In this document: piece by piece, positions 6,720 through 64,000 of the stretch
Layout of the letters: every line of letters starts with the position of its first letter
Numbering within the stretch: the first letter of the stretch is position 1
Assembly: GCA_963744145.1 (NCBI GenBank)
Contig: CAVUSO010000001.1
Span: forward strand, 7,328,001-7,392,000
DNA from: an uncultured cyanobacterium
GTDB taxonomy: Bacteria; Cyanobacteriota; Cyanobacteriia; Cyanobacteriales; CAWUOF01
Direction of reading: 5' to 3'
DNA length: 64,000 nt
Notes under the pieces: model-generated
Seen by the model: only the letters and a program-made list of their open reading frames with translations
Databases searched by the model: none
Told to the model about the DNA's origin: nothing
Made by a program: the position numbers and the translations under genes

Positions 6720-7490
6720 TAGTTATTGCTGATACTTCTACTATCTGTTATCTAATTCTAATTGAAGAGATTGAAATTTTAGCTCAACTATTTGGAAAGA
6801 TTGTTATACCTAATGCGGTCAAAAATGAACTAATAGCTGATGACGCTCCTGACCCAGTAAAAGATTGGATCAGGATACCACCTCTATGGCTTGAAGAAAT
6901 ATCATTAACTTTAATGATAGATTCATCTTTGTCTAAGTTACATCCTGGTGAACAAGAAGTAATTATTCTGGCGGAAGAAATAGCAGCTAATTTGGTTATT
7001 CTGGACGAAAAGTCAGCTAGGAAAATAGCTTGGCAAAGAGGCTTAAAAATTATTGGTTTATACCAATTAACTATGAAATTGCACTTAATCTGAGGTTGAT
7101 CTGTTAGAGTCAGGGCAGGTTTATAATGGTGATCTGTTGGTGGCAAAATTGACTGGTGAACCTGCCCCTACCAATTTTATCCTCAATTTGCGGATTTCTG
7201 TAGTAGGGGCGGGTTCGCCCAGATTTTTGAAATTTACCAATTAATTAGAAAAACCCGCCCGGGTTCACCGAGATGTTTGACATTTACCTACTAATCATCA
7301 AAACCCACCCTCACCCACAGATCAATATACATCAATGTATCTTCATGGTGAATTGGTATTATTAGGTATTCTTGATTTAGCCGCAACCCAGAATTTGATT
7401 GATTTACCTTTGGTAATTGAAAGATTAAAAAATACAAATTTCCGAATATCTAATCATCTGGTTCAAACTCTTATAGATCGTCATCAATAA
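6716..7490 (+). pseudogene. DUF3368/PIN-like toxin interrupted by a MITE; restores to 157 aa
   Basis: MIVIADTS...LHPGEQE...LDEKSARK...GLKIIGL|LGILDLAA...NTNFRIS; in frame after removing 7061..7361. Confidence 0.85.
7061..7358. mobile_element. MITE copy 2 (298 bp), TTA target duplication
   Basis: Same ends as copy 1; TTA at 7058-7060 and 7359-7361; differs from copy 1 by one indel and one substitution that I could see. Confidence 0.92.
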
Positions 7491-7547: not shown

Positions 7548-10262
7548 TTAGTTAATATGAGAATCAATCCATTTCAAAATTCCTTCATCATCAAATTCTT
7601 GAGCTAATTTCAAAATTTCCTGGCAAAAATTCCGATATTGCGGGTCAAACTCTTGTAACAGATTAACTTCCCGTTCAACTTTTTCAATATCACCGATTCG
7701 CGCAGCTTTCTGTAAAGATTCTAATTCTGCAAGGGAAGGTATAACCATTATTTTATCTTCATTCACTTCCGGTTTAACCGCAGTAAAATCCGGATTAATG
7801 ATCCATTCTATTTCCAACCGATTTCTCAATTTCTCCAACAGTTCTGGTAATTGGATTGGTTTGAGTAAAAAATCATCACTATTAAAGGGAAGTATCTGTC
7901 GATCGCTGAGAGAAAAATTATTAACAGACATCGCAATAATCGGTATTTTTTGCAATTCCGGTGAATCTTTTAGATGTCGAATCATCTCCATTCCATTCAT
8001 TTTTGGCATCACTAAATCAGTTAAAATTAAATCAGGTTTAGCGATCGCTGCTTTTTCCAAACCTTCTACTCCATCACTTGCTTCGAGCAACTCAAACCCA
8101 TAAGGTTTAAGTAAATCAATCATTAAAGTTCGACTTTCAGTGCGATTATCTACTACCAATAATTTCACTAACTCCCGACCAGTAAAACCAGTAATTATTT
8201 CTGGTTGAGTATATTTAGCTAGTTCTCCTTTTTCTACTCCTAATTCTAGGTTTAAATCAAAATGGAAATCACTTCCTGTACCTAATTCCGAAGAAACTTG
8301 TAAAGTTGAATCCATCAGTTGTAATATTTTTTGACTAATCGCTAGTCCTAATCCCGTCCCTTCCGCTTTACGTTGATTTTCTCCTACCTGTTCAAAAGGT
8401 AAAAAGATTTTATCTATTTGATCAGCAGTAATCCCTACCCCAGTATCTTGAACTGCAAACCGGATTTTTGTAGTTATTTGTCCTTGTTTAGTCACCTGAT
8501 TATTACCCAGTCCGATCACTTTCAAGGTAACCGAACCCTGATCAGTAAATTTAATTGCATTACCTAATAAATTGATTAATACCTGTCGTAACCGTTTTTC
8601 ATCAATCCGGACTCGTTCCGGTAAATTTTCGGCAAATTCACATTGAAAAATTAAATCTTTTGCTTCTGCTTTAATTCGACAAATTTCTGCTACACCTACC
8701 AAAAAACTTGGGAAATATATATCATGAACATAAATATCTAACTTTCTGGCTTCAATTTTTGCTAAGTCTAACAATTCATTAATCAGATTTAATAAATAGG
8801 AACCACTTTCATAAATAATATTGATACCTTTGCGATCGTCTTTAGTCAAATTTTGAGAACGTTGTAAAATTTGGGTATAACCTAAAATCCCATTGAGGGG
8901 TGTTCTAAGTTCATGACTCATCGAAGAGAGAAACTCGCTTTTAGCTTGATTAGCAGAGTCAGCATTTTCTTTAGCTAACTCTAATTCATGAGTTCTTTCT
9001 TTTACTTTTTCTTCCAAGGTTTGAGCATATTCAGCTAACGCTTCGTTGGCTTTTTTTAGCCGGAATTGATTATAATAATTACTAATTAAAATTCCGCTAG
9101 CGACAATTGCTAAAAATGGCGCAAAAAATGGGATTACCCAACCTTGTAAAAAAGCAGTATAGCTAATTAACCAAAGACATATTCCGGCTAAAATAATCAT
9201 CAAACCTGTACTGAGAAAGAACCAATTTTTCCCAGCAATTTTTTTCCGCAAAACCTCCCAAGTGCTAATAGCACTAACTAAAGACCACAGAACAATCCAA
9301 AGTTGATTGACCCATAGCGACCAAACTTGCAATTGATAGCGTCCATCTAAAGCACCGCTTACAATTTGACTACAAATATTCCCGTGAACTACTACACCTG
9401 GAGTAAATAATTTTTGGTTAAATAATGAATTACTATAAGGTGTTTGTAAAATATCGTTGAGACTCAGAGCTGTCACTCCAATTAAGACGATGCGATCGCG
9501 CATGAACCCAGGAGGAATCTGGTTTTTTAATACTTCAGTTAGTGATATGCTAGGAAATTTTTCTAACTGTCCTCGATAATTTAGTAAAAGCTGATATCCT
9601 CCTGTATCTTTTTGGACATAACCCCCTTCATTTCCCTGTAATGGAATCAAAGTAGTTCGACCTAAACCATATTTTTTCTGTTTTTTATCTAATATTTTTG
9701 GTTCAATTCCTTTCTGTTTTAGATAAAATAATGCTAATTTCATTCCCAAGCTTTCTTTTCCTTGCACCGACAATAAAGCTCGACGTACATTACCATCACT
9801 ATCAATGCTCAGATCGGATGCGGCAACTTGGTCAAGTTGATCTAAAGTGGGTGGAGGTGGAATTTTTTCGGGTGTGACTTTTTCCAAACCGATCAGGTTT
9901 GGTGTAGCTTTATATAAAGCAATTAACTGCTGATGTCCTGGTTCTACGGGGATGTCTCGATATAAATCCATCCCAATCACAGCAGGTTTTTGAGCCTTAA
10001 TATATTTTAGCAGTTGGGTTAAGGTCAAATCAGACATTGGCCATTGCCCGACAGCTTTAATATCAGCTTCTCCTGCTGTGACGATGACAATACGATTATC
10101 CGGTGGTTCTGATGAACGTAGACCAAAAAATTGGTCAATTGTTACCCATTCAAGCAATTGGAAAGCACCTGTGATGTTTCCAACTATGACTAATCCACTT
10201 ACAATCAGGGCAATGACAAGAATTTCTCGCCATTCTAACCATTTTCGGATCGGCAGTTTCAT
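7548..10262 (-). CDS. CHASE2-domain hybrid sensor histidine kinase
   Basis: CHASE2 motifs ([34 protein letters not shown]), 3 TMs, [13 protein letters not shown], HATPase, receiver. Confidence 0.93.
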
Positions 10263-10270
10263 TAACTAAG

Positions 10271-11542
10271 TTATAGTTGTTCCTGCAAAGGTTTTTCGGC
10301 TAAAGATTCTAATTTTACTTGCTTTAACAAATCAGACCATTCTTTGGCCAAATTTGCATCAGTTGGATGGGTGAAACGAGCTGAACTTAATATGCTCAGG
10401 GTATCATACCAAATTCCCGACTTGCCATATAAAGCTGCTAGTTGGATCACATTTAAAGACCCCGATGCTGATGGAGCTGGAACACGCTTTACCCATCCGT
10501 TAATACTGTAAGCATCCGGACGCATAATTTCACCTGGTTTGAGCAGAATGATTGACCATTGATAAGGTTTGCCCATTTCTAAAGGTGGTGCATCTTGGGG
10601 TAATTGAACCCCCACAATACCTCCAGTTTTGTGTAATTCTAGATTTGTTTGATAGTGATACAGTCGATCTTCACTATAAACACTCAAGAAAACATTCTTA
10701 GCGGGTGTATTAGGAATATAGAAAAAGAAAGTTGGATGTTCAGATATTGTTAAACCAATATTGGTGTTTGGTAATAAGGCTGTTGGATAAAGAGTTAGAC
10801 TATCGCTCCGAGAACCTCCTCCTTTGGTGCTGACGGGTTGTTGGTCATCGGTCGAGCCAAAATCTACATCTCCCCGAGAACCTCCTCCTTTGGTAATATG
10901 AGGAGTCTGATCATCAGTTGAGGTGAAATCTACATCTCCCCGAGAACCTCCTCCTTTGACGGTATTGGGAGTCTGATCATCAGTTGAGGTGAAACCGATA
11001 TCCCCTCGAGAACCTCCTCCTTTAACTGTGGTCGGAGTTTTATCCTCAATGGAGCTGAAACTGATCATTCCCCGAGAACCTCCACCCCTAACTGTAGTTG
11101 GGGTTTCGTCTTCAATTGAGCTAAAGTTGATACTGCCCCGAGAACCTCCACCTCTAACTGTGGTTGGGGTTTCGTCTTCAATTGAGCTAAAGTTGATACT
11201 GCCCCGAGAACCTCCACCCCTAACTGTGTTGGGTGTTTGATCATCAGTACCAGTAAAGTTGATACTGCCCCGAGAACCTCCACCCCTAACTGTGTTGGGT
11301 GCTTGATCATCAGTAGTAGTAAAGTTGATATTGCCTCGAGAACCTCCCCCTAACAGTTTATAGGCAGTTTCGTTAGTAGGTGGTGCAAATTGAATATCAT
11401 TTGCTGAAAAAATATGAAGATTAACTGGCACTTCACCAGCATAACTCATGGTAGCCCCTAATGCTACTGATGATGCGATCGCTACTATTCCTAGTTGACG
11501 ATGTATTCTTCTATACTGTCCAGCTTTTTTTGGCCTTTTCAT
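10271..11542 (-). CDS. Exported DUF928-domain protein with 22-aa tandem repeats
   Basis: Signal-like N-terminus; C-terminal DUF928 (GLTISEHPTFFFYIP, GKPYQW, GIWYDTL); nine GGGSR motifs. Confidence 0.88.
   Translation of the reverse strand: MKRPKKAGQYRRIHRQLGIVAIASSVALGATMSYAGEVPVNLHIFSANDIQFAPPTNETAYKLLGGGSRGNINFTTTDDQAPNTVRGGGSRGSINFTGTDDQTPNTVRGGGSRGSINFSSIEDETPTTVRGGGSRGSINFSSIEDETPTTVRGGGSRGMISFSSIEDKTPTTVKGGGSRGDIGFTSTDDQTPNTVKGGGSRGDVDFTSTDDQTPHITKGGGSRGDVDFGSTDDQQPVSTKGGGSRSDSLTLYPTALLPNTNIGLTISEHPTFFFYIPNTPAKNVFLSVYSEDRLYHYQTNLELHKTGGIVGVQLPQDAPPLEMGKPYQWSIILLKPGEIMRPDAYSINGWVKRVPAPSASGSLNVIQLAALYGKSGIWYDTLSILSSARFTHPTDANLAKEWSDLLKQVKLESLAEKPLQEQL
10805..11350 (-). repeat. 66-bp (22-aa) tandem repeat, 8 full units plus a ninth GGGSR motif
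   Basis: Period of 66 nt seen directly (e.g. gggtttcgtcttcaattgag at 11101 and 11167). Confidence 0.95.
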
Positions 11543-11887
11543 GGTAGTAAATTACCCTCTCTTTGGAATGGCTATCAACACAATTATATATTTCGTATAC
11601 TAATCTTTATCTTAGTACAACTAATTGCTTGATTCTCAACTTTATCTATTTTTTACAATTGCTTGATTCTCAACTTTATCTTTATCCGATATTTATTCAA
11701 CATTGTCTAATGTCTAGGTCACCAAAGCTTAAAATTAGCTTATTAATTCCTTAACCTAGACATCTTATAATTATACATTTTACCAAATCTGATAATTGTA
11801 TTATTCATTACTTAATTGGACTTCTTGCTAAAATAATTTGGACAGATAGCTGGCCTGCCCCATCTCTGGTCGCCATAATTTTCAGAA

Positions 11888-14617
11888 TTAAAGCCAATTA
11901 CCAACTAAAACAAAAGGAGACCAGAAAAAAGGATGTTGATACTTAGAATGGATTAAAGATATCTGAGCTTGACGTAAAGCTTCAGCTTTGCTAGAAGCAT
12001 CTGTGGTTAATTGATGATAAAAATTGATCATTAATTCAGCCGTAGATTCGTCTCGCACTGACCATAAAGTAGCCATGGTACTGCGGGCACCCGATCGCAG
12101 AGCAATTCCGGCAATTCCTAGAGCAGCTCGTCGATCGCCATCTGCTGTTTGACAAGCACTTAAGACTAAAAGTTGCAGCGGATTTGGCGATTTTCTGGAT
12201 TGGAATGCGAGTAAATCTCCAAATTCTTTGACGTTGATTTCTCCATCCCAAGTGAGGAGAAAAGTTTGTTCAGCATCAGAACTAAATTGACCGTGGGTAG
12301 CTAGATGGATGATATCAAAAGCATTTTCTTCGATTTGGCTTTTTAAACCAGTACGAGTAAATTTTTGATCAAGTAAAGTATGGGAATGGTGGTCTAATTG
12401 AGAAAGAATTTCCTTAATTTCAAGTTTGACTCCTGGTAAAGAAGGAAACCCTTGACGAGATTCAGTCAATCCAGCCGTAAGACTATGTAATCTGTTTTTT
12501 GATAAAGTTTGTGGACTGAGCAAATATAATCCCGAACTCAGAGCAACAGCATAATTTTCGATCAGGTATTGTTTGCCATCATAAAGAGCTGACATGGGAA
12601 TATTGCGGAGAAATCCATCTAAAACGAATACTATAGTTTTAATTTTTTGACGATCTAAATCTGGTTTAACTGGCTTAACCAGCCAGTTATAAACTATCTC
12701 CGAATAGCGTAACCTTTCTTGATCGGAATAGTCATAATTGAAGGAAGAATAAAGTGTTTTTAAAGTCTGATCTACTTCAATTTCAGAGAGTTTAGTAGCA
12801 TAGTGTCTGAGTGGTTGGTGAGGAACAGAAACAATCACTTCTAAGCGATCGCTCAGAAAAACAGGATAAATTACTGCTGCGGTTGGATCGATCTGGTCAA
12901 CCGCCACCGGGCCAGTTCTTAAACAAGTATCTTGGAAATAATTATCTAGTTCAGCTAATTGTAAAAATTTGATCACATTACGAGCCAGTTTCATGTCCTC
13001 TTGACTCGCATTTTCTGACAATAATAAATCGATTAGTTGGCGATGAATGGGTTCAGCGTTCTCATTAAAACTAAACTGAATTTCCCGGTTATTAGCAATG
13101 AGGTCACTGCGTAAATTTTGAATTGCCTGAAAAGCTTCTTGATAGTTAGCGAGGGCTTCTTGGCGTTTACCTTCTTGTTTAAGTAAATGACCAACTTGCC
13201 AAGCAGTAGTAACAATTAATTCATTAGAATTTTTCAGTTGTGCAATTTTTAGAGCAATTTGAGCAAGCTGTTTAGCATCTTCATCCTGTTGTTGGTATTC
13301 ATAAACCTTACTGAGTTGATTAATCGCATAAGCTTCGGCAATTTGATCGTTAATTGTTCGCGCTACATTAATTGCTTTGGTTAAATCTTGCACCCTTTCT
13401 TGCCAATTAATTACCCTGGCATTTTTTTGATTTTGATCTACCAGTTTCATCAAACTCTGGTTGAGATTGACTTGAGTAAAAACATAGTAACGACTAGGTG
13501 GAATCTGGGCAATTTCCGCTTTAACTTCAGGTAGAATGGCGATCGCTTGATCTGCCAATTTTTGCGCCACCATTAAACTTAATTGATTTAATTGAATTTT
13601 GGCTTTTAATCCAGGGTTAGTCGTAATTCTTAAGGCTTTTTTATAAAAATCAAATGCTTCTTCGATCGCATCGTAATCTCTCGCTAGATTAGCTATATCT
13701 AATAAAGTAGCAGCCCGATCATTATTAGTTATTTTCGCATCTTTAATCGCTAAACTTTTTTCGAGGACTTTGACGGATTTGGTAAATTCTCCCATTAATC
13801 TTAATGTTACTCCCAAGCTCCGTAATCCCGATGCTTTTAATACTGGATCAGGTTCTTGTTGAATTTCTTGGAGCGTTTCTTCTAACAATTTCCGACTCCG
13901 CTGATACTGTCCCATGCTCCGGATTGCTTGAGCTTGATTGATTTTGCTCCCCCACATCCCCTGAGAATTTCCGGCTTTTTTGTACAGAGATTCAGATTGT
14001 ATCCAACTTGCTAAAGCTAATTCAGCTTGTCCTGTTTTTAGTTGCGATTTTCCTTGGGTATTCAGAGCTTGTGCTAATACAGACCATCCAATTGGATCTG
14101 CTGCAGCTTGATTTTCCAATAACTTGATGCTACTTTCAATGGCTTTATCGGCCAGTTGCCATTCTCCTAAATCTTGATATGCTGAAGATATGTTAGTTAA
14201 TAATGATGCTTGGGGTAAAATTAGTTTCTCAGATGCTAGAATATTTAGGGCTTGTTGCCAAATCGCGATCGCTTCTTGATAGCGTCCCTCTTGCTCGAGT
14301 TTTCTTCCTTGTTCTATTAATCCTTCTGGTGTTTGGACTTGTTCAACCACTCCCATATTTGTTGGGACATGGGCAAAAACTGGCATCACTAGCGTTACTA
14401 ATAATAAAGCTACCAAACCTAACCCTAAATAAAAAGAAGATCTGGCTAACTTTCTCAGGAAGTTTTCCAGAAGTAATACCAATTTAATGTGAAGTTGCAC
14501 AAAGCTAAATCCCCCTAAATCCCCCTTAAGAAGGGGGACTTTTAATTCTGGCTCCCCCTTTTTAAGGGGGTTGGGGGGATCAATTCTATGCAGCTTTTTT
14601 TTGAAAAATTTATACAT
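11888..14617 (-). CDS. Exported TPR + CHAT (caspase-like, clan CD) protease
   Basis: Hydrophobic signal region, TPR-like helices, CHAT motifs IHLATHGQF and LVLSACQTA, C-terminal HPFFWSPFVLVGNWL. Start uncertain because the N-terminus contains a repeat element. Confidence 0.92.
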   Translation of the reverse strand: MYKFFKKKLHRIDPPNPLKKGEPELKVPLLKGDLGGFSFVQLHIKLVLLLENFLRKLARSSFYLGLGLVALLLVTLVMPVFAHVPTNMGVVEQVQTPEGLIEQGRKLEQEGRYQEAIAIWQQALNILASEKLILPQASLLTNISSAYQDLGEWQLADKAIESSIKLLENQAAADPIGWSVLAQALNTQGKSQLKTGQAELALASWIQSESLYKKAGNSQGMWGSKINQAQAIRSMGQYQRSRKLLEETLQEIQQEPDPVLKASGLRSLGVTLRLMGEFTKSVKVLEKSLAIKDAKITNNDRAATLLDIANLARDYDAIEEAFDFYKKALRITTNPGLKAKIQLNQLSLMVAQKLADQAIAILPEVKAEIAQIPPSRYYVFTQVNLNQSLMKLVDQNQKNARVINWQERVQDLTKAINVARTINDQIAEAYAINQLSKVYEYQQQDEDAKQLAQIALKIAQLKNSNELIVTTAWQVGHLLKQEGKRQEALANYQEAFQAIQNLRSDLIANNREIQFSFNENAEPIHRQLIDLLLSENASQEDMKLARNVIKFLQLAELDNYFQDTCLRTGPVAVDQIDPTAAVIYPVFLSDRLEVIVSVPHQPLRHYATKLSEIEVDQTLKTLYSSFNYDYSDQERLRYSEIVYNWLVKPVKPDLDRQKIKTIVFVLDGFLRNIPMSALYDGKQYLIENYAVALSSGLYLLSPQTLSKNRLHSLTAGLTESRQGFPSLPGVKLEIKEILSQLDHHSHTLLDQKFTRTGLKSQIEENAFDIIHLATHGQFSSDAEQTFLLTWDGEINVKEFGDLLAFQSRKSPNPLQLLVLSACQTADGDRRAALGIAGIALRSGARSTMATLWSVRDESTAELMINFYHQLTTDASSKAEALRQAQISLIHSKYQHPFFWSPFVLVGNWL
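14477..14614. mobile_element. MITE-family element with CCCCCTTAAGAAGGGGG-type hairpin cargo, in frame in the CHAT N-terminus
   Basis: Starts TACCAATTTAATGTGAAGTTGCAC (MITE end is TACCAATTAACTATGAAATTGCAC); other end degenerate; encodes LHRIDPPNPLKKGEPELKVPLLKGDLGGFSFVQLHIKLV. Confidence 0.7.
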
Positions 14618-16482
14618 ACTAGATTTTTGAGTTTACCTTGATCCGAGAGTTACTCGATTAACTTTAATTATTTTAAGTGTTGCTCTTGTTCACTAAAATA
14701 TTTATCACTGCTACTTTAATCTGTTATAATTTCTAGGTTAAATTTTTAGTTAACCCTAGTTTTCTAAATTTATTAGGCACTGCCAGTAATCTAGCGCGAT
14801 CGGTACAGAAAAAAGATTAAAATTAGGTTAAGCTATGTTTAAAATCCTTGACAATTCCTGGGGCGATCGGCTAGGAGCGGCGAGTTCGGCCCAGAAGCGC
14901 TCAAAACAATTTCTCCTTTTTCATTGATTTGCCATCCTGTGACTTCTCTAATTACTGGTAAGGTGGGAGTTGTTAATCTAGCCGAAGAATTAGCAGAATT
15001 TTGGGATAAGACTTGACTGGTGTAATCTGTGTAATCTTGCCAAATATCCTCACTATTAAATGGTTTGCTCGGATCATCTGATAAACCACCCCTTCTGGTG
15101 ATCTTAAACGTATCGCCACTACGTTTGGTACAATCGGCAATAATTTGATGAGAAGCATCAGCGAATTGTTGTGGTAGTTCGATTAATTCCGCACTGGTTT
15201 TAAGATCAGGAGTATTGACTTTGACATTACCAGAAATTCCAAATTGAGAAGAAGCAGTAATATTACTATCAGGAGAAAGGAACAAACCCGTAGTAGTAAT
15301 TAAAATATTACCACCGCTACCTCGGACAGCATTAGCATTAATGGTACTACCTTCAATGGCAGCGATCGTACCAGAATTAATGGTCAAATTGCCCCCATCA
15401 CCAACTGAGCCTAAAGCATCTACAATGATTTCACCACTATGGCGTAATTGCAAGGAATCTTGCACATTCAGAATCACATTACCACCCTGTCCAGATGCGG
15501 TAGAGCCAGTAATAAAGCCACCACGCTGTAATAATACATCTGTAGCATTTAACTGGAATTTTCCCGCATTTCCAGTTCCTTGATGTTGTACACCAACTCG
15601 CGCCCCATCTTGCACTGTCAGACGACCTGTATTAATAGTTAATTCACCTGTATTTCCTGAAAAATTAGGTGGCAATCCGAAATAATTGAGAATTTCATCA
15701 TTTAATTTAAAACCACTAGCTGAGATATCTGAAGGCTCTCCATCAGATTTAGTACCGCTAACCAAAATTGAGTCTGGGGCGTTAATTGTAACTTTACCAG
15801 CATTCCCAGAAGTGCTAGTTGTAGAATTTACTTGTCCGCCATCAAGAACGGTTAATTTAGGCGTATTAATCAGAGTATTACCTGCATTTCCAAATGCAAA
15901 AGTATAGGTGCTGATATAACTCGCAGCCAATAAAAGCGATGGGGGTGCTGTTCCAACCACTTCAATACTCTCAGATGCCTTGATATTAATATTACCACCA
16001 TTTCCCGTTCCATTTCCTGGTAATTCTTGTCCGATTCGATTAAGGGGAGAAGTATATATAGTTGATCCTAGTAAACCTCCATTTGTAATGCTTAATCTAG
16101 AGGTAGATAAATTCACATCACCCGCCGAGCCACTGTTATAAGTTACGCTACTGATTGCGCTATAAATAGGAGTATTATCATTACTATTTATAGCTCCATT
16201 AATATTTACTAACTGGCTAGCATCAATAGTAATATTGCCAGCATTGCCTGTTCCATTTCTAGGTGCTGGTTCTGCGATTTGGTAAGGAAATACTGCTGTT
16301 AAAATTTCACTTCCACTGTCAAGTCTCAATTGTTGGGTTGATATCGCTACATTCCCTCCATTTGATCCTCCCGAAGTATCTGACCAAATTCCCCCACTGA
16401 AATCACTTTCAAAGGAATTTATTCCATTTGCGGAGATTGAGTCAGAAGCATTAACGCTGATATCTCCTCCAATTCCATTTCC

Positions 16483-17939
16483 CAGGGTAAGAGCATCTCA
16501 ATTAGGCTTGACACAAGGATTAAGAAGGATCTAATGTAGACTCAGAGAAACAAGAAAGGAGGATTTGGAGCATATAATTATTATCCATAGCAGCGCGTTT
16601 ACTTTTCTGGCGTAAACTGCGTTTGTAAGTTGACTCGCGATTAAGAGCGTTGAGAGCTAATCGTCTGAGCAGAGAAAAGTTACGAGGACTGTGAAAAGAA
16701 CGAATGCGACAGCTATCTTCAAAAAAAGTACAATCTAAAGTCCAGTGTGCAGAATTTTCGATTTCCCAATGTTGACGAATAGCTCGACCTATGAATTCAG
16801 CATTGTTGTCTAAAGAAGTAAGATAGTATTGAGTCTCGCAAGTAGTTTTGTTCCAAAGATGACGGATACGATGAATGATGACAATACTTTTTAAACCTGC
16901 CCATAATTTGGGTTGGTAAAGGTCAGGAATGGCCGTAATAGGGAACACCCAAACTTCACGAATTTCCACCCGATGATGCCCTTTCTCAATCCGTTTGTCA
17001 TGAGTGAAATCAATTCCTGAAAAATTATTTTTCTGTGCAGTTTGGAAGAATTGTTGTACCTGATTATGTAAAGTTGGATGATTGGCTTTAAGTGTCAGAA
17101 TATAATCAGCTTTTTTATCAATAATCTTTTGAGCAATTTCGGTTTGGGTCCCCATCGCATCAATAGTAATAATTGAGCCAGCGATATCAAGTAACTCTAG
17201 TAATGCTGGAATAGCTGTAATTTCATTGGATTTATCTTGGACTTTCATTTGTGCTAAAACTAATCGTTGTTCACTAGCCCACGCACTAATCAAATGTAAT
17301 GCTGATTGTCCTTGATTTCGGTCATAGGAACCTCTGACAGTCTTCCCATCTATGGCAATTACTTCTCCTCCCATTTGAGTAACTAAGGTGTTTACCCAAG
17401 CTTGAAAACATTGCTCCAATTGGTTGGGGTTAATACTTTCAAATACTCGACGAAAGGTATCATCTGAGGGAATACCATTGGGTAATTCTAAAAACTCTTC
17501 TAGCCAAATTTGTTTACTAATCCCATAATTCTCAATGTCTTCCCAGCCTTGTGCTCCAGCTATTATGGCCAGAATTGCCATCACTAAAATGTCTATCAAT
17601 AAGTGTTTTTTTGTTCGGTTTACTCTCGGGTCTTCAACATCTTCAAAATGCTTGACTAAACTCTGTTGTATTTCCATCAAGTCAGCTACTACTTGGTTTT
17701 TCCTAGCAGAATGGGAGTTTTGTTTAGCATTAGCTATATTGATATCGAACCCTTGAGACATTTGAATATTCCTGGAGATTATGAGTTGGACGGTATAGTT
17801 TTTCACCTACCACTCTCTATGCTCTTTTGTCAACTATTTTCTCTACCAGATTTGTGATGTTCTGATCTCGATGGCTATATTTCATATTTGATGAAAATAT
17901 TCTGTATCCTCGGTGACAAAATTAGATGCGCTAACCCTG
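16483..17939 (-). mobile_element. ISAs1-family insertion sequence, 1457 bp, 11-bp target duplication
   Basis: TIRs CAGGGTAAGAGCATCT / AGATGCGCTAACCCTG; ATTCCATTTCC at 16472-16482 and 17940-17950. Confidence 0.93.
16520..17806 (-). CDS. ISAs1-family DDE transposase
   Basis: DPRVNR, GIPSDDTFRRVF, IAIDGKT, KSNEITAIP, TIDAMGTQ, HWEIEN motifs; exact start uncertain. Confidence 0.95.
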   Translation of the reverse strand: MKNYTVQLIISRNIQMSQGFDINIANAKQNSHSARKNQVVADLMEIQQSLVKHFEDVEDPRVNRTKKHLLIDILVMAILAIIAGAQGWEDIENYGISKQIWLEEFLELPNGIPSDDTFRRVFESINPNQLEQCFQAWVNTLVTQMGGEVIAIDGKTVRGSYDRNQGQSALHLISAWASEQRLVLAQMKVQDKSNEITAIPALLELLDIAGSIITIDAMGTQTEIAQKIIDKKADYILTLKANHPTLHNQVQQFFQTAQKNNFSGIDFTHDKRIEKGHHRVEIREVWVFPITAIPDLYQPKLWAGLKSIVIIHRIRHLWNKTTCETQYYLTSLDNNAEFIGRAIRQHWEIENSAHWTLDCTFFEDSCRIRSFHSPRNFSLLRRLALNALNRESTYKRSLRQKSKRAAMDNNYMLQILLSCFSESTLDPS

Positions 17940-19577
17940 ATTCCATTTCCTTGAGTTAGAGAATAAATTCCCCCTCCATTAGATAAAGTTAATCGATCTG
18001 TGGACAGAGCAATTTTTCCGCCATTTCCTCCACCCAAACTTATACTATTTAAGCCACTACCAAAGGAATAAAAAGGGTTGGCATTATTGGCGATAATATC
18101 GGTAGCATTGACAGTAATATTACCACCATTTCCCGGGGCATTTTGTCCTACCAATGTAGTGATTTGCCCCCCATTAGTTAGCATCATTTCTCTAGTTGAG
18201 ATTTTGATATCTCCTCCATTACCAGTCGCAAAATTTTCGCTACTGATCCGACTATTAGGATTTTTGTCTAGCTGAATTGGAGTAGTGCTGGTTGGTGATA
18301 CCCCATCGATGTTAATTGTATCGGCTGTGACTGTAATATTTCCAGCTATTCCTTGTCCTAAATTTAAGGTTTCGATCCGTCCCCCATCTTGAATATTGAT
18401 TTGGGGTGCAGTAACAGCGATCGCACCTCCTTGACTACTAGATCCTGATTCAATTTGATTCACAATTGCGGAACTTAAACCAGAGTTTGTCCCAGCAATT
18501 TCCAGAGATTTACTAGCAGCGATCGCGATATTACTCCCAGTTCCAATCCCATTATTACTCGCGCTAATTTGGGAACCATTGAGGATACCGATATCACCAC
18601 CAACTAAGGAAATACCACTATTACCTAGGTTGGAAACATTCACGACCGAGGAACTCAAGGTAATATTGCCAAACTGTTGCACCTGAGCATATCCTAAAGT
18701 CCATCCAGATAGATTTTGGGAAAGACTAACTTGTCCTAATTTCACGCTCCCAATTTCAATCCGTCCTCCGGTCGCGATCGCACTGGCACCTGTTAAAACT
18801 ACATCTCCACCAACTAATGCTAATGTATTTCCAGGCGCAACCGTTAAACTTCCTGAACTTTGCACTGTCCCTGAATTAGGTTGATTCCATTGTAAACCGA
18901 TCGGAACATTCATGCTCAACAATGGAGGAGCCTGTGGATTACTAGCACTATAAATACTACCATTGGATAGTTGAATACTGTTAGCGGTACTACCGAAAAA
19001 AGCACCACCAATATTTAAGCTGGTATTCGGTCCAAAAATTATCCCGTTCGGATTAGTTAAAAATAAATTTGCTCTACCGTTAGTATGAATTGAACCATCT
19101 ATATTAGAAATATTCTTACCTGTGACACGGGTGAGAATATTGTCAATTCCAATTGCATTATTAAAAAATGCTCCTGTATTCGTAGGAATCGAAAATTCTT
19201 GGAAACTATGGAAAAGTATATTACCTGATCTGGTCCCCCCTTCAATTTGAAAGGTATTCCCTTGATGGCTTACAACTGAAGGTTGAGATAACGTAGCATC
19301 AGGAACAATTTGGGCTGTTGCTATATTTGCCCAACTCAGAAATATAATTATGCTAAAACTACGGCATAGCATAGAGTTTTCCTAGGCGTATTTATAACGC
19401 ACTTATGAAACAGATTTAGTTCAAACTTACATAACCTCTTCTTAACATCCCATCGTTATATTATAATAAAACTAAGATCAGATTAAGATTAGTTTAAAGA
19501 CTATCAGTAAATAGGCGATCGGGGGATGACTCCCCCTTAAAAAGCAGGGCTATTTCATGCTCGATTCTCATATAATC

Positions 19578-19703
19578 TGACCTAACCCCCCAACCTCTTC
19601 CCTAGGAGGGCAGGGGGAGTAATTAAGATGATTAAATTGATGGGAGTGAATCAGACTCATTCTTGCTCCCCTTTCCTCTTAGGAGAGGGGTTGGGGGAGA
19701 GGT
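19578..19703. repeat. Cyanobacterial CCCCC/GGGGG hairpin dispersed repeat
   Basis: CCTAACCCCCCAACCTCTTCCC...CTCCCCTTTCCTCTTAGGAGAGGGGTTGGGGGAGAGG; inverted relative copy at 44455..44540. Confidence 0.75.
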
Positions 19704-19781
19704 TCTGCTATCAAATAATATATGATTGTATGATAATTATGCGATCGCTATATGAGCAAAAAAAATCAGCCTAAATTAAAT

Positions 19782-22700
19782 TTAGTTTAAATTCCCTTGA
19801 CAAGAGGATGGGTAGAGAAAGGAAGAAAGAGAATTTGCTTCAGATGTAACTAAAACAATTTCTCCTTTTTCATTAACTTTCCAACTATTTGCTTCCCTAA
19901 TTATTGGTAAGGTAGGAGTTATTAATTTAGCCGAAGAATGAGCAGAATTTCGTCCTAAAAATTGACTGGTGTAATCTGTCCGATCTTGCCAAATATCCTC
20001 ACTATTAAATGTTTGACTTGGCTCTTCTGATCTCCCACTCCGTCCACTTACCTTAAATGTATCTCCACTCCGTTTGGTACAACCGGCTACAATTTGATGA
20101 GCAGGATCAGTAAATTGTTGTGGTAAATTAATGAATGCAGCTACAGATTGGATATCAGGAGTATGGACAGAAACATTTCCAGACACTCCAAATTGGGAAG
20201 AAGCTGTAATCTGACTATCAGGGAAAGTAAACAATCCTTGAGTAGTAATAAAAATATTACCCCCCTCTCCTTTAACAGCATTAGCACTGATGATGCTAGT
20301 TTCCAAATTAGCTAAAGTATCTGTATTAATATTAATATTACCCCCATTCGCAATCCCTTGAGCTTGCACAGTAATTTGACTTTGATCGCGTAACAGTAGA
20401 CTGTGGGAATTAATGGTAACATTTCCCCGATCGCCCGAAATAGCTGAGACGGCAATTTGCCCATGATTATTCAGCAATACCGAATTAGCTTGAATATCCA
20501 CATTTCCAGCTTGAGAAACTCCCTGTCCGACCTGGGGAACATCAGCAATTTGGAAGTTACTTGCGTTAATTAAAGCACCATCACGAACAATTAACTGATT
20601 CGTTTTAATCGCAATATTACCCGCATCTCCGATCGCACTTGCAGCATTAGTAAATATGCCATTACTACTAATGCTATCAGTTCCAGCAAGTTCCACGCGA
20701 TCGCGAGCATTAACTGTGATATTGCCACCTTTTCCATTCCCAATACTCGAACTAGTTAGACGTACACCTACTCCCTGATCTAACAATAGCGTACCTGTAT
20801 TAATTACAATATTACCTGAATCTCCATAAAAACGAGTATTAGCAGTAATCCCGGCTGTCGTACTACCAAAAGTCCGACTACTAGCACCGATTAATTTAAT
20901 TTGATTAGCTGCATTAATAGTTAGTGTTCCTGTTTTACCTGTTCCTTGAGTATCGGTAGAAATATTTCCTTGCTGAATCAGTAAATTACCAGTATTAATA
21001 GTCAAATCTCCCCCATTACCACTGTCATTAATTCTTGCTACAATTCCGGAGGTACTGGTATTAATTAAGTTGATATCTTGGGCAGAATTTATCAATAAAC
21101 TACTCCCCATACTGTTAGGTTGGGAACTAAAGGTATTAACATTTATTTCTGCACCATTTTGCACTGTTAACGTTCTCGTATCAATTCTTAATAGTCCCCC
21201 GTTACCAGTAGCTCCTGGTCTAATTTGGGAAAATATCCCACTGCTGTCTATATTATTAGATGATACTCCTGATATCTGAATCTGATCAGCAATAATATTG
21301 AGATTACCAAGATTACCAGCACCATTGATATTACCAGCAATCCGAGCGCCATTGCTAATTAATAATTTATTAGTATTAACATTCAGATTTCCCGTGTTTC
21401 CTAGTCCAGAAGATAGGGTTAAAATCCCACTATTTACTTGTTGGTTAGGATTAAAATTGTTAGGATTTAGATTAGTAGCTTTAATCACTGATGGATTACC
21501 AGGATTAGCAACAGAAATTTGTAAAGTGTAAGTTTGTCCCGGTTGGGGAGCTTTCCCCTCTAAAGGTACATTATCTGAAAGAGTAGTATTATAAACACCA
21601 ACCGCAATCACATAAGTACCTGGTTGTTTGAGCGTAGTAGAAAGATAGGAATCGTTCCTAAATGTACTACCTCCAGCACCATTTGTGATCGGAGAATCAT
21701 CATTACTACCAAGTAATGCTCCCGTCTTGCGATCGAATAAGAATATCTGGGTATCAATATTACCTGGAGCTAGACGTACAGAAGTTTTTTCACCATAATC
21801 GATATCAAAAATAGCTTTTGAATTCGGTTGACTGGTCGCAAATTGATAGTAGTCATAAGAGGTAGTTGCTGGACCTAATGGTGTTCCCCCCTGAACTACT
21901 TGGGTTGGTGTTCCCCCTAGAACAATTTGAGTAGGTGTTCTCGAAACAGAGACATGGGGAATAGTCTGGGATGATTCTATATTTGGATTAGCTTGGGTAT
22001 TAAAATTACTGGGAACGAGCGTATAGCTGGTGACTTGATCAAAAGGATTATTAGTAAAGTTGTTACTAATCCCGTCTAATGATGCTGTATCTGTAACTTT
22101 TACATTAATATCTCCCCCATTACCTTTACTAGTGCTTGAAGTCAGAACTTGTCCTCCAGTTTGGAATTGTAAATTACCTGTATTGATCTGGATTAGTCCA
22201 CTCGGATTATTACTATTAGTTACTGTCGCGATAAAACCCCGATCCGATATATTTAAACTCCCCTGGGGATTATTAATTGTAATGTTCCCACTCGGACCAC
22301 TGGTTTCATTGAGGGAACGAGTTAAAATCCCACTAAAAAGTCCATCCGTTGTAAACCCAGAAATATCAATATTGTTCTGAGCATTAATTACAATATTTCC
22401 TGATGCTCTACTATCACTGGTGATCGTTTGAATTCGTGAACCATCTTGTAATTTTAAAGTACCCGTATTAATTTGAATCGGTTGGAAACTATTCCCAATT
22501 AAACTTTGTTGACTCAACCGAGTAGCTTGGGTAGTATTAATCGCGATCGCTCCTGATGTTCCTTGGATTTGACTAGCGGTTAAATCCAGATTATTACTAT
22601 TAAGATTAATTTCACCTCCTTGCAATTGAGCGGTTTGGAAACTAAGATCAGTTGCTAATAAAGATAAATTGCCAGAACTAGTTAAATTACTTCCTTGAAA

Positions 22701-23270
22701 TTGGATTGAATTACGGGGATTACTATATTGTAATCCGGCTGGTACATTAATAGTTAATAATGGTGGTGCTTGGGGATTAGTAGCACTAAAACTTTGATCA
22801 TTATTAAACAGAATACTATCTGATGTTACTAAATTAAGTGAACCTTTAAGATCTAGTTGAGCATGAGAACCAAAAATAATCCCATTCGGGTTAATCAAAA
22901 ACAGATTAGCATTTCCTAATACACCCAAAGTCCCGTTAATATTGGAAGAATTAACACCGGTAACCCGCGTGAATATATTAGATATTCCGACTGGATTATT
23001 AAAATATGCCGCACCTCCAGTTGGAACATTAAATTGTTGAAAACTATGAAATAAATTACTCCCTCTTGTAGTTCCACCTTGAATCAGCAATTTATTACCT
23101 TGGTTACCAACCTGAGAAGGATTCGGTAATGTTACATCAGGCACAATTTGGGCTTGGGAGATATTTGCCCAATTCACCAATATGATTAGATTCACTATAC
23201 TAAATTGACTTATTTGTTTACCAAATTTAGTCCCATTGGTATTAGTAATAAACTTTAGTAAGCTATTCAT
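19782..23270 (-). CDS. Filamentous haemagglutinin-like TpsA exoprotein with an inserted PPC-like domain
   Basis: TPS domain (NLFHSFQQF, INPNGIIFG), GNxGNxxI repeats, insert YDYYQF...DTQIFLFD...NDDS...GTYVIAV, C-terminal ITASSQFG domain. Confidence 0.92.
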   Translation of the reverse strand: MNSLLKFITNTNGTKFGKQISQFSIVNLIILVNWANISQAQIVPDVTLPNPSQVGNQGNKLLIQGGTTRGSNLFHSFQQFNVPTGGAAYFNNPVGISNIFTRVTGVNSSNINGTLGVLGNANLFLINPNGIIFGSHAQLDLKGSLNLVTSDSILFNNDQSFSATNPQAPPLLTINVPAGLQYSNPRNSIQFQGSNLTSSGNLSLLATDLSFQTAQLQGGEINLNSNNLDLTASQIQGTSGAIAINTTQATRLSQQSLIGNSFQPIQINTGTLKLQDGSRIQTITSDSRASGNIVINAQNNIDISGFTTDGLFSGILTRSLNETSGPSGNITINNPQGSLNISDRGFIATVTNSNNPSGLIQINTGNLQFQTGGQVLTSSTSKGNGGDINVKVTDTASLDGISNNFTNNPFDQVTSYTLVPSNFNTQANPNIESSQTIPHVSVSRTPTQIVLGGTPTQVVQGGTPLGPATTSYDYYQFATSQPNSKAIFDIDYGEKTSVRLAPGNIDTQIFLFDRKTGALLGSNDDSPITNGAGGSTFRNDSYLSTTLKQPGTYVIAVGVYNTTLSDNVPLEGKAPQPGQTYTLQISVANPGNPSVIKATNLNPNNFNPNQQVNSGILTLSSGLGNTGNLNVNTNKLLISNGARIAGNINGAGNLGNLNIIADQIQISGVSSNNIDSSGIFSQIRPGATGNGGLLRIDTRTLTVQNGAEINVNTFSSQPNSMGSSLLINSAQDINLINTSTSGIVARINDSGNGGDLTINTGNLLIQQGNISTDTQGTGKTGTLTINAANQIKLIGASSRTFGSTTAGITANTRFYGDSGNIVINTGTLLLDQGVGVRLTSSSIGNGKGGNITVNARDRVELAGTDSISSNGIFTNAASAIGDAGNIAIKTNQLIVRDGALINASNFQIADVPQVGQGVSQAGNVDIQANSVLLNNHGQIAVSAISGDRGNVTINSHSLLLRDQSQITVQAQGIANGGNININTDTLANLETSIISANAVKGEGGNIFITTQGLFTFPDSQITASSQFGVSGNVSVHTPDIQSVAAFINLPQQFTDPAHQIVAGCTKRSGDTFKVSGRSGRSEEPSQTFNSEDIWQDRTDYTSQFLGRNSAHSSAKLITPTLPIIREANSWKVNEKGEIVLVTSEANSLSSFLYPSSCQGNLN

Positions 23271-23898: not shown

Positions 23899-24264
23899 TC
23901 AATTGCGTAATAATTGTTGCACAGTTCCAATTAATTCGTGAGGTTCAAAGGGTTTAGTAATATAAGCATCTGCACCTTGCTTCATTCCCCAGTAGCGATC
24001 GAATTCTTCCGTTTTAATGGAACACATGATCACAGCAACATTCTTAGTTTTTGAGTTGGATTTGAGACGACGACAGACTTCATAACCATTCATGCGAGGC
24101 ATAATGATGTCTAAGATCACCAAAACTGGACATTGCTCCTGAATTCGCTCTAATGCTTCAATTCCATCTGTAGCACTCATGACCTTTAATCCACTCTTTT
24201 GCAGGATTTCGGCCATCATCTCCCTTTGGCTCTTACTGTCTTCCACTACCATTACTAAACTCAT
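23899..24264 (-). CDS. CheY/PilH-like single-domain response regulator
   Basis: VVEDS, LDIIMPRMNGYEVCR, DRYWGMKQGADAYITKPF. Confidence 0.92.
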   Translation of the reverse strand: MSLVMVVEDSKSQREMMAEILQKSGLKVMSATDGIEALERIQEQCPVLVILDIIMPRMNGYEVCRRLKSNSKTKNVAVIMCSIKTEEFDRYWGMKQGADAYITKPFEPHELIGTVQQLLRN

Positions 24265-62354: not shown

Positions 62355-64000
62355 TTAGTTAGGGTAGGATTGACCTATCGGTAGGATCGACTTATAAAGG
62401 TTCTCAAACTTGACTTCGACTTGGGGAGGTACGGCAGTAAAATAAACATAAAAACTACCATTTTCTCCGGATTTTTCTAAAACTTTAGCATATATATCTT
62501 CATCCTGTTGCTGTTGATTTTGAGATTGATCATTAACATCATCAAGTAAGTTGATCTTAATATTAGTCAACGGTGCTAATGGATGATCTGAAGTAACTAA
62601 AGCACCTTTAGGGGAAAGCTTAATTAAGCTACCTAGAAACAAATCGGCACTAACGTTTTTACCATCTAAAATTGCATATTTCAGGTCAATTTTGGTTGGT
62701 AGTGGTAAGTAGATTTCTTCTTTTTTAGATAAATAAATATTATATTTACCACCAATCCCACCGACATCATAGATCGTAATCGGCTCTTTAATCCCCTTTG
62801 GCTGGACTTGGGTCGCCCCGTTAATCTTAATAATTGGCCCAGCTGCGGCCAGGGTAGACTCAGAGATCAGGATTTGACTTTCTGTGGTATAGGATTCAAT
62901 CCGGTAAGTTAAATTTACTTGACTACCAACTACACCATACTTAGTCCGTTTGGTCGAGCCGATATTACCAACCACCACTTCACCTGTATTAATCCCTATT
63001 CCCATTTTTAGGGCTGACAATCCTAAATTTTTCATCTCCTGATTGACTGCTTCCATCGCTAATTGCATGACCAAAGCACAGGCGATCGCCCGTTCAGCAT
63101 CATCCTCACGGAGCGTGGGTGCACCAAATAAAACTAAAATACCATCCCCCATAAATTCATCAATAGTTCCTTGATAGGAAGTAATCACATCAGCCATATA
63201 TCCTAAGTAGAGGTTGAGGATTTTCACCACATCTTCAGGGGGCAAACGTTCTGCTGTTGCGGTAAATCCTCTTAAATCAGAAGTTAAAATCGTAATTTTG
63301 CGTCGTTCTCCACCCAGTTTTAAGCCTTCGGGGTTTTCTAGTAAATTAGAAACCACATCGTCCGTCAGATAACGTCCAAATGTTTCGCGAATATCCCCAG
63401 CAGATTTTGCTATATAAGTAGTGACTCCTAAAGCTGATCCACCCAAGGCTAATAACGGGGGAACTAATGGAATCCACCATCCTTCCAGAAAAGCTAAATA
63501 GCAGCTTAATAACAAAAGGACAGCAGCTAAAGTCATACTGGTAATTACTAATAGGGATTTAGCATTTCGCTGCATCCAAATCAATGTCGTGCCTAGGACC
63601 GACCAGGAGAAAATCCATAACCATTCGGTAATTTTTGGCCAGGTTTTAATCATGGTTCTGCCTAACATGGCTGAATTCACAAGCTGGCTAATTACATTAG
63701 CATGGATCTCAATTCCCGAAGTAGGACGCTGTAGTTTGAAGAAGTTATTAGTAAAAGGAGTAAAGAAAAGATCCTGAAGACTGGCTGCACTAACACCAAT
63801 TAAGACAATGCGATCGCGCATTAATCCTGGGGGAATTTGGTTTTGTAATACCTCTGTCATGGTAATTCGCCGAAAACTTCCGGCTGGTCCACGATAGTTA
63901 ATCAGGATCTGATATGCTCGATCGCTAGCTTGAACATAGCCACCATCATTGTGTTGAAAAGGAATGAGAATTGCTTGACCTAGCTGATATTTTTTGGTAA
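62355..64000 (-). CDS. CHASE2 adenylate/guanylate cyclase (class III), 5' end outside the window
   Basis: CHASE2 tail, 3 TMs, SDLRGFT, FMGDG, GNIGSTKRTKYGVVGSQVNLTYRIES; frame stays open to the window end. Confidence 0.92.
   Translation of the reverse strand, partial: TKKYQLGQAILIPFQHNDGGYVQASDRAYQILINYRGPAGSFRRITMTEVLQNQIPPGLMRDRIVLIGVSAASLQDLFFTPFTNNFFKLQRPTSGIEIHANVISQLVNSAMLGRTMIKTWPKITEWLWIFSWSVLGTTLIWMQRNAKSLLVITSMTLAAVLLLLSCYLAFLEGWWIPLVPPLLALGGSALGVTTYIAKSAGDIRETFGRYLTDDVVSNLLENPEGLKLGGERRKITILTSDLRGFTATAERLPPEDVVKILNLYLGYMADVITSYQGTIDEFMGDGILVLFGAPTLREDDAERAIACALVMQLAMEAVNQEMKNLGLSALKMGIGINTGEVVVGNIGSTKRTKYGVVGSQVNLTYRIESYTTESQILISESTLAAAGPIIKINGATQVQPKGIKEPITIYDVGGIGGKYNIYLSKKEEIYLPLPTKIDLKYAILDGKNVSADLFLGSLIKLSPKGALVTSDHPLAPLTNIKINLLDDVNDQSQNQQQQDEDIYAKVLEKSGENGSFYVYFTAVPPQVEVKFENLYKSILPIGQSYPN

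Follow-up and report, generated by a model that had tools for sequence, protein, structure and literature searches.

According to the available sections of the reports cited here and below, MtxA of Magnetospirillum (PDB 4Z29) has a signal peptide, and the next gene downstream of mtxA encodes a CHASE2 adenylate cyclase (PMC4439547), and the Sinorhizobium CHASE2 cyclases CyaD1, CyaD2 and CyaK answer a protein signal via the outer-membrane barrel NsrA (PMC13001267). Fusions of caspase and CHASE2 domains have an architecture different from that of the set treated here (PMC2853523; PMC8195603), and a CHASE2 and DUF928 pair was reported from a WD40 cluster in Nostoc, in a study that also cites the acid-stress response of sll1891 (PMC5587647). 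The cyanobacterial CHAT protease HetF cuts PatU3 between R117 and S118 (PMC9457339), non-caspase members of family C14 favour Arg or Lys (PMC9457339; PMC5756287), and the adhesin CdrA has a cysteine-hook anchor and is released by a periplasmic protease (PMC13405001). Here we analyse a set of genes for filamentous exoproteins of the two-partner secretion (TPS) type (TpsA), a TPR-CHAT protease, a DUF928 protein and a CHASE2 hybrid histidine kinase, located between positions 7548 and 23270 of a 64,000-nucleotide stretch (the window) of the 7.7 Mb genome of an uncultured cyanobacterium (G000). Positions are those of the window unless G000:C1 is stated.

The domain families are individually known, and the system that they form is real, widely conserved and undescribed in the full-text literature searched, which left subscription journals and supplements mostly outside (tables in PMC8195603, for example, could list the cassette). 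In this literature, DUF928 was mentioned only in PMC5587647, no direct CHASE2 ligand was named, and no mechanism was found, as stated in the original prediction made from the sequence alone; no named NCBIfam family corresponded to the system. It is very probable that TpsA, TpsB, the TPR-CHAT protease, DUF928 and the CHASE2 receptor constitute one functional system. For the exported CHAT proteases that cyanobacteria have in large number, no substrate is known to us. For the set studied here we propose, with a probability of roughly 40%, a relay suggested by sequence comparisons, in which the TpsA tail would gate the CHAT protease, the protease would cut DUF928 and the CHASE2 kinase would read the product. 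The novelty lies in the gene system as a unit, and the mechanism is only proposed.

A total of 16 DUF928, 85 CHAT, 18 CHASE2 and 56 TPS matches were identified in the source genome, fragment matches being excluded, and their spacing was compared with 2,000 random placements. A CHASE2 gene was located within 3 kb of 9 of the 16 DUF928 genes (random mean 0.26, maximum 3), a CHAT gene within 10 kb of 10 (random 2.3, maximum 7), and a TPS gene within 10 kb of 9 (random 1.5, maximum 6). With profiles built from the source-genome paralogs, 53 loci of about 20 kb were surveyed in 8 near-complete cyanobacterial genomes, leaving out one plasmid copy and 2 fragments; CHASE2 was present in 37 of them, stand-alone CHAT in 27, TPS in 25 and ShlB in 6. 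Across these 8 genomes, the distance from a DUF928 start to a CHASE2 start was at most 3.5 kb for 36 of the 56 DUF928 genes (in random placements, 0.87 on average and 5 at most), and the order TpsA-CHAT-DUF928-CHASE2 of the window recurred at loci L032, L044, L046 and L081. Of 61 genomes sampled across Cyanobacteria, 19 contained DUF928, and a profile of this CHAT subfamily had matches in exactly these 19. The copy numbers of the two were correlated (Spearman 0.85), in genomes that are related and thus not independent and with CHAT counts limited to 36 scored candidates per genome.

The linkage was tighter outside the cyanobacteria, in the best 80 of 301 relatives collected with the C-terminal DUF928 pattern rather than the Arg motif described below. 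By record title, these belong to Proteobacteria, Desulfobacterota, Verrucomicrobiota, Nitrospirae, Nitrospinota, Myxococcota and others. Where the locus was 15 kb or longer (38 cases), CHASE2 was present in 37, TPS in 34, CHAT in 33 and ShlB in 31; the 42 shorter loci contained 29, 11, 24 and 21, respectively. The gene-neighborhood survey that had been suggested as a check on the original prediction thus shows conserved linkage in cyanobacteria and other phyla, and the recurrence of TpsB (ShlB) in the non-cyanobacterial loci makes this a set of 5 genes, with TpsB as a member that had been missed.

The DUF928 protein matched only PF06051 and consists of a hydrophobic stretch at residues 16-33, 9 units of 22 amino acids, and an immunoglobulin (Ig)-like plus helical core at residues 241-419. 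It had been described as repeat-expanded with a signal-like N-terminus, and both traits were recovered, signal peptides here and below being judged by eye and hydropathy alone. The repeat period is exactly 22 residues, every unit ends with GGGSR, and units 2-9 follow the pattern G-x-[IV]-x-F-x7-P-x-[TS]-x-[RK]-GGGSR, unit 1 being more diverged. The Arg that closes the GG[ST]R unit was shared by 55 of 56 cyanobacterial homologs and by 81 of 81 others, a conservation equal to that of the core Trp residues; neither homolog set was picked by repeat similarity, but the Pfam model starts at the motif. The residue after the Arg is mostly Gly or Ser. The family has 7,993 representatives at 50% identity, and its expanded forms multiply the Arg-ending motif to 2-9 copies. 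These forms clustered in one subfamily on a quick tree of 101 cores (5 changes versus 33 after shuffling), consistent with one or two origins, and the expanded label of L032 in this tree is probably false. A search for longer DUF928 forms yielded 5 matches, all repeat-expanded and none fused to CHAT or CHASE2, which is weak evidence. Yeast alpha-factor is a multi-copy peptide precursor, and features of such a precursor, namely a signal-like start (by hydropathy) and tandem units with a conserved terminal basic residue, are present in the DUF928 protein.

An AlphaFold model of DUF928 with a predicted local distance difference test (pLDDT) score of 90.5 displayed an Ig-like sandwich and a helical bundle, preceded by 20 residues, corresponding to one repeat unit, that were unstructured (pLDDT 51-57). 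The top match covering both domains of the core was MtxA (Foldseek E-value 2e-4; Z-score 10.0, root-mean-square deviation 4.0, 146 residues aligned), and the runner-up (8.4) covered the Ig part only. At the sequence level, DUF928 gave no PDB match to MtxA, and a weak Atlas lead (0.78) was obtained.

The conservation also covers a considerable stretch before the Arg (Y/F-x-P-P, G-x-P), which exceeds the needs of a bare cut site, and the folded core is conserved and similar to MtxA, which is encoded beside a CHASE2 cyclase. These traits, and a link of DUF928 to CHASE2 that is tighter than that to CHAT, would suit an uncut co-receptor or inhibitor, the Arg unit of which binds the CHASE2 pocket or plugs CHAT as a pseudo-substrate; the repeats would then raise avidity, and the true CHAT target would be a different protein, for instance the ectodomain of CHASE2. 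We consider it unlikely that DUF928 acts in this way, as a multi-copy precursor would match the exact head-to-tail units, all of which close with an Arg that usually precedes a small residue, and DUF928 shares its 19 of 61 genomes with the CHAT subfamily.

Several further DUF928 forms were noted. The proteins P0123-P0127, P0147 and P0151, of 459-543 amino acids, have 2 DUF928-profile matches each and are possibly tandem double-domain forms. A further DUF928-CHASE2 pair, in which DUF928 has one unit only, spans the window end (63588-64000 onward; G000:C1:7391588-7393540), and a paralogous set at G000:C1:3634710-3649734 includes 4 TpsAs, an apparently frameshifted CHAT, a 7-unit DUF928 and a short CHASE2 frame. 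A PatS-like reading of the repeat, with a motif that we take to be RGSGR, was dropped; the unit ends with GGGSR and is kept outside heterocyst formers.

The TPR-CHAT protease matched PF12770 with 204.9 bits (cut-off 24) as well as TPR_12. Its catalytic dyad is intact, as had been predicted, with H775 in ATHG and C822 in SAC. Both residues, together with E733 and with D856, which we take to be an S1-pocket residue as in separase, were invariant in 37 of 37 aligned CHAT domains. The sole non-catalytic Cys is C565 (ELDNYFQDTC). A model of the CHAT homolog at locus L034 was structurally matched to Csx29, DdvA and separase; sequence searches with CHAT gave no match to separase. Hydrophobic stretches were observed at residues 34-50 and 57-74, with a signal-like end near residue ~83 (between VFA and H). 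A dispersed palindromic repeat is located inside the 5' end of the gene (14520-14580, reading PPNPLKKG...KVPLLKGDLGG), and related sequence was also found at ~19590-19710, between the TpsA genes. Because this repeat-containing extension precedes the signal-like segment, the start codon is uncertain, and the signal-like N-terminus previously ascribed to CHAT stands as a segment behind an extension.

The TPS domain was identified in both TpsA genes (PF05860 and TIGR01901), and the only Cys residues of TpsA1, C1064 and C1157, are both in its tail. TpsA tails are characterized by the motif C-x(n)-F-x3-G-R-G-G-L-P, which is degenerate in TpsA1 (SGRSGRSEEP); a TAAG site was absent from the last 125 residues of this protein. 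With any residue in place of the Arg (C-x(n)-F-x3-G-x-G-G-L-P), the motif ends 31 of the 32 non-fused TpsAs of 600-1250 amino acids in the source genome, and it was found in 17 of 22 TpsAs in the cyanobacterial loci and in 36 of 43 in the others. The Arg is present in all 36 matched non-cyanobacterial TpsAs but in only 11 of the 31 from the source genome, and the second Cys is present in all 31 of the latter and missing in 19 of the former 36.

The tail also occurs in fusions. A signal peptide, the tail motif and a TPR-CHAT domain form one protein at locus L034 (13162-15714 of the locus, plus strand; the mature protein has 3 Cys only, in the tail, the linker and the catalytic site) and at 8 of 8 loci from the same genus (L184-L191), the fusion in L191 being split downstream. 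In 7 of these 8 loci the order is DUF928-CHASE2-fusion, with no TpsA between. Single chains of TpsA, tail and TpsB were found in 2 genomes (L035:1234-5625, plus strand, 1463 amino acids; L048:12828-17153, minus strand, 1441 amino acids). The TpsB N-terminus is periplasmic by established topology, and these chains place the tail at that end and hence in the periplasm. In 13 of 13 TpsA-CHAT fusions in the source genome, CHAT replaces the tail, and neither the motif nor the Cys of CHAT is present; a Cys at the C565 position is retained by all 12 free TPR-CHATs of this genome and by 52 of 54 aligned homologs. This joint loss, and the uneven presence of the tail Arg and second Cys, are more in keeping with a docking module than with a cut site. 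The pattern suggests a disulfide between the tail and CHAT, and the tail probably binds or regulates the TPR-CHAT protease, possibly via a bond between a tail Cys and C565.

A tail with this location could instead serve as a cysteine hook in TpsB, such that CHAT, under the control of CHASE2 and DUF928, would clip it and shed the filament, an inside-out release of the kind known for CdrA and LapG. Both Cys residues of TpsA1 are located in the tail, the second Cys is kept in the 31 motif-bearing TpsAs of the source genome and the tail Arg in the 36 non-cyanobacterial ones, and CdrA provides a precedent for a hook anchor combined with a periplasmic protease (PMC13405001). Adhesin release nevertheless appears improbable: neither residue is kept in both groups (Arg in 11 of 31, second Cys gone in 19 of 36), CHAT genes have acquired the tail without any TpsA body that could be shed, the receptors bear output domains (52 of the 59 non-cyanobacterial ones contain an adenylate cyclase motif), and the DUF928 repeats are left unexplained.

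The receptor predicted for the relay has a transmembrane segment at residues ~9-37, CHASE2 at 24-331, 3 more hydrophobic segments, HisKA at 440-505 (H450), HATPase, and REC at 702-812; no CHAT domain is present, and no solved CHASE2 relative was matched by sequence. Whereas most non-cyanobacterial receptors contain the cyclase motif, the cyanobacterial ones vary, from which it follows that the output domain is exchangeable. Fusions of an N-terminal CHAT-like domain and a CHASE2 receptor flank DUF928 in 13 of the 53 relatives' loci (L031-L083). It was also noted that these fusions, one further example of which is located at G000:C1:7034274-7038408, often face an exported TPR-CHAT, possibly as a two-protease cascade across the membrane. 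A CHAT-CHASE2 fusion in L108 was only apparent, an artefact of an N-gap.

The original prediction listed 5 co-oriented minus-strand genes, including 2 for TpsA. The common orientation was recovered, but 7 open reading frames (ORFs) of at least 200 amino acids were found, and only TpsA1 is intact, TpsA2 being interrupted by a 1,457-bp insertion sequence that had been overlooked. The element is flanked by an 11-bp target duplication, and the frame without it would encode 1,021 amino acids. Pfam searches identified the CHASE2-HisKA-HATPase-REC kinase, DUF928, TPR-CHAT, a DDE transposase and 2 TPS-domain proteins among the ORFs; the ORF at 14839-16329 had no Pfam match. The insertion sequence, presumably of the ISAs1 type, has 11 almost identical copies of full length across the genome, and their identity of 99.8-100% indicates recent activity. 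Near-identical DNA was found in one soil metagenome run, on short contigs, none of which spans the insertion sequence or reveals the repeat number.

No TpsB gene was found among the ORFs scanned, and 2 ShlB genes are located elsewhere in the genome. The DUF928 stop is 8 bp from the kinase start, as predicted, and the remaining intergenic gaps measure 345, 221 and 409 bp, and a single operon is therefore not established; a promoter scan gave 51 sites versus 60 expected by chance. Long gaps, the broken TpsA2, the massive paralog expansion (85 CHAT and 56 TPS matches) and the 11 of 53 cyanobacterial loci without partners would suit a co-regulated surface or biofilm cluster with no direct chain and with repeats as neutral slippage products, but this is very unlikely given the compact 5-gene cassettes in several phyla, the 3 kinds of fusion, the matched presence and absence of DUF928 and CHAT, and the repeat arrays kept with an intact motif across a subfamily.

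The features are listed in Table 1. In their vicinity, a gene for a stand-alone receiver domain, a possible phosphorelay partner, is located upstream of TpsA1 on the same strand (23899-24264, minus strand), and 2 elements of 100 bp with a common tandem-repeat consensus were observed at 2104-2204 and 7210-7310, the latter just downstream of the kinase. TpsA1 contains an insert at residues ~475-590 (~21500-21850) that is absent from the TpsA2 pieces and has no Pfam match; we presume that it resembles a pre-peptidase C-terminal (PPC) domain.

Table 1. Features of the TpsA-CHAT-DUF928-CHASE2 locus, in window positions
Feature	Position	Strand	Basis and remarks
CHASE2 hybrid histidine kinase, 904 amino acids	7548..10262	-	Pfam, hydropathy, motif positions; predicted receptor
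DUF928 protein, 423 amino acids	10271..11542	-	Pfam; nine-unit repeat, MtxA-like core
Nine tandem 22-codon units of DUF928, predicted cut sites after Arg	10808..11401	-	Repeat search, homolog conservation
TPR-CHAT caspase-like protease, 909 amino acids from first ATG, start uncertain, predicted exported	11888..14617	-	Pfam, alignment
TpsA2 3' part (ORF 14839-16329 from TTG 16329); two Cys; C-terminal motif at 15040-15174	14839..16482	-	
Insertion sequence, 1,457 bp, DDE_Tnp_1 transposase at 16520-17806	16483..17939	-	Not part of the system
TpsA2 5' part, signal-like start and TPS domain; runs into the insertion sequence and stops	17882..19372	-	Pfam
TpsA1, filamentous haemagglutinin-like exoprotein, 1162 amino acids, intact	19782..23270	-	Pfam TPS
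TpsA1 C-terminal tail, degenerate motif, predicted CHAT-docking module	19782..20123	-	

In the relay that we favour, the TpsA tail, predicted to be periplasmic, would gate the TPR-CHAT protease, which would cut DUF928 after each GG[ST]R. Such cleavage after Arg is reasonably likely by analogy with characterized relatives, and, if it occurs, the output of CHASE2 is probably set by the cleavage product and not by intact DUF928. The most likely product would be a 22-residue Arg-ended peptide that switches the CHASE2 kinase, with the freed DUF928 core as an alternative signal; the peptide is favoured as the ligand because it is the peptide that has multiplied. Nine copies would yield more peptide per precursor. 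As TpsA2 is broken, the input would have to be supplied by TpsA1 or by the ~30 other TpsAs with a tail, for which TpsBs with genes outside the locus would serve as exporters. In plants, a clan CD protease, metacaspase, frees a peptide after Arg from PROPEP1 for the receptor kinase PEPR; like alpha-factor, this eukaryotic system consists of unrelated proteins and serves as an analogy only.

A number of observations weigh against this relay. In the source genome, the 6 of 16 DUF928 genes within 3 kb of CHAT equal the random maximum. Only 18 of the 53 cyanobacterial loci held all 4 kinds of genes, the 11 loci mentioned above had no partner within ~10 kb, and DUF928 was near only 34 of the 85 CHASE2 matches in the 8 genomes. 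The non-cyanobacterial loci are kin ranked by similarity to one query. At the locus itself, TpsA2 is broken, TpsA1 has a degenerate tail motif and CHAT an uncertain start, and the signal-bearing proteins may be targeted to the thylakoid instead. The fusions represent few independent events, perhaps one per type, with the tail fusion in one genus and the TpsA-CHAT fusions in one genome. Structure prediction of CHAT with the TpsA C-terminus had been suggested as a check, and the naturally occurring tail-TPR-CHAT fusion was modelled with AlphaFold (68 alignment rows; predicted template modelling score 0.85); the model was confident for TPR-CHAT but left residues 1-71, including the tail, unplaced (pLDDT <50), so that docking and the disulfide are without structural support. 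Deletion of mtxA had no phenotype (PMC4439547). Finally, the Arg specificity of CHAT is borrowed from HetF and separase, and it stays an inference because other TPR-CHATs, the Craspases, cleave after Met or Leu (PMC11506125).

The set offers one testable answer for the CHASE2 ligand, the substrate of exported CHAT and the role of DUF928, with testable specifics in the form of a defined 22-residue peptide, a cut site and a tail motif. An adenylate cyclase closes most of the compact cassettes outside the cyanobacteria and would give a simple cAMP readout. If the relay is correct, two-partner-secreted filaments sense through a caspase-like peptide cascade. In its broadest and more doubtful form, the proposal describes a widespread 5-gene system in which the filaments would be surface or contact sensors, a disulfide-held periplasmic tail would activate the caspase-like protease, hormone-like Arg-ended peptides would be the first defined CHASE2 ligands, the repeat number would set the gain, and paralogous sets would provide cyanobacteria with many parallel channels. 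The copy in the window combines a notable 9-unit precursor with damage at TpsA2.

The comparison with the described systems, again within the available sections of the reports, reveals partial likeness in each case. The CHASE2 receptors of the NsrA system also respond to a protein-type signal, but the sections available describe no protease or precursor and name no direct CHASE2 ligand (PMC13001267). In EACC2-caspase-CHASE2 proteins, caspase and CHASE2 are combined in one membrane protein (Kaur 2021, PMC8195603), whereas they are separate proteins at this locus. HetF-PatU3 in Anabaena shares with the set a cyanobacterial CHAT that cuts after Arg, but HetF resides in the membrane, with its TPRs in the periplasm, its substrate is a regulator of cell division and differentiation, and no exported precursor, TpsA or CHASE2 belongs to the system as far as the sections available go (PMC9457339).

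The top structural matches, DdvA in Myxococcus and Craspase Csx29, have the TPR-gated CHAT fold in common with the protease studied here, and the TPR-CHAT part of DdvA is located in the periplasm for signalling, as predicted for this locus (PMC11506125). DdvA differs in that it spans the membrane, acts as an anti-sigma factor and has an active site that is incomplete (PMC11506125), and neither a DdvA-type cytoplasmic anti-sigma domain nor an ECF sigma gene was found among the locus ORFs scanned. Csx29 is RNA-activated, and neither protein has a separate precursor and receptor in the accounts available. MtxA is like DUF928 in its signal peptide, its Ig-like and TPR-like core and the adjacent CHASE2 receptor gene, but the identity is ~10%, and a region of ~115 N-terminal residues takes the place of the Arg unit or units. 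The sections available on MtxA mention no CHAT or TpsA (PMC4439547).

The CdrA/CdrB and LapG/LapD systems of Pseudomonas share a filamentous adhesin, a cognate pore, a Cys-bearing C-terminal anchor and a periplasmic protease with the set described here, and TpsA1 contains a C-terminal Cys pair as in CdrA (C1064, C1157). In contrast to LapG and LapD, the protease here is a clan CD CHAT, and the receptor is a CHASE2 histidine kinase with a REC domain and not a c-di-GMP receptor of the LapD type. Compared with CdrA and LapG, the set further includes DUF928, has a kinase or cyclase output and is predicted to signal from the outside in.

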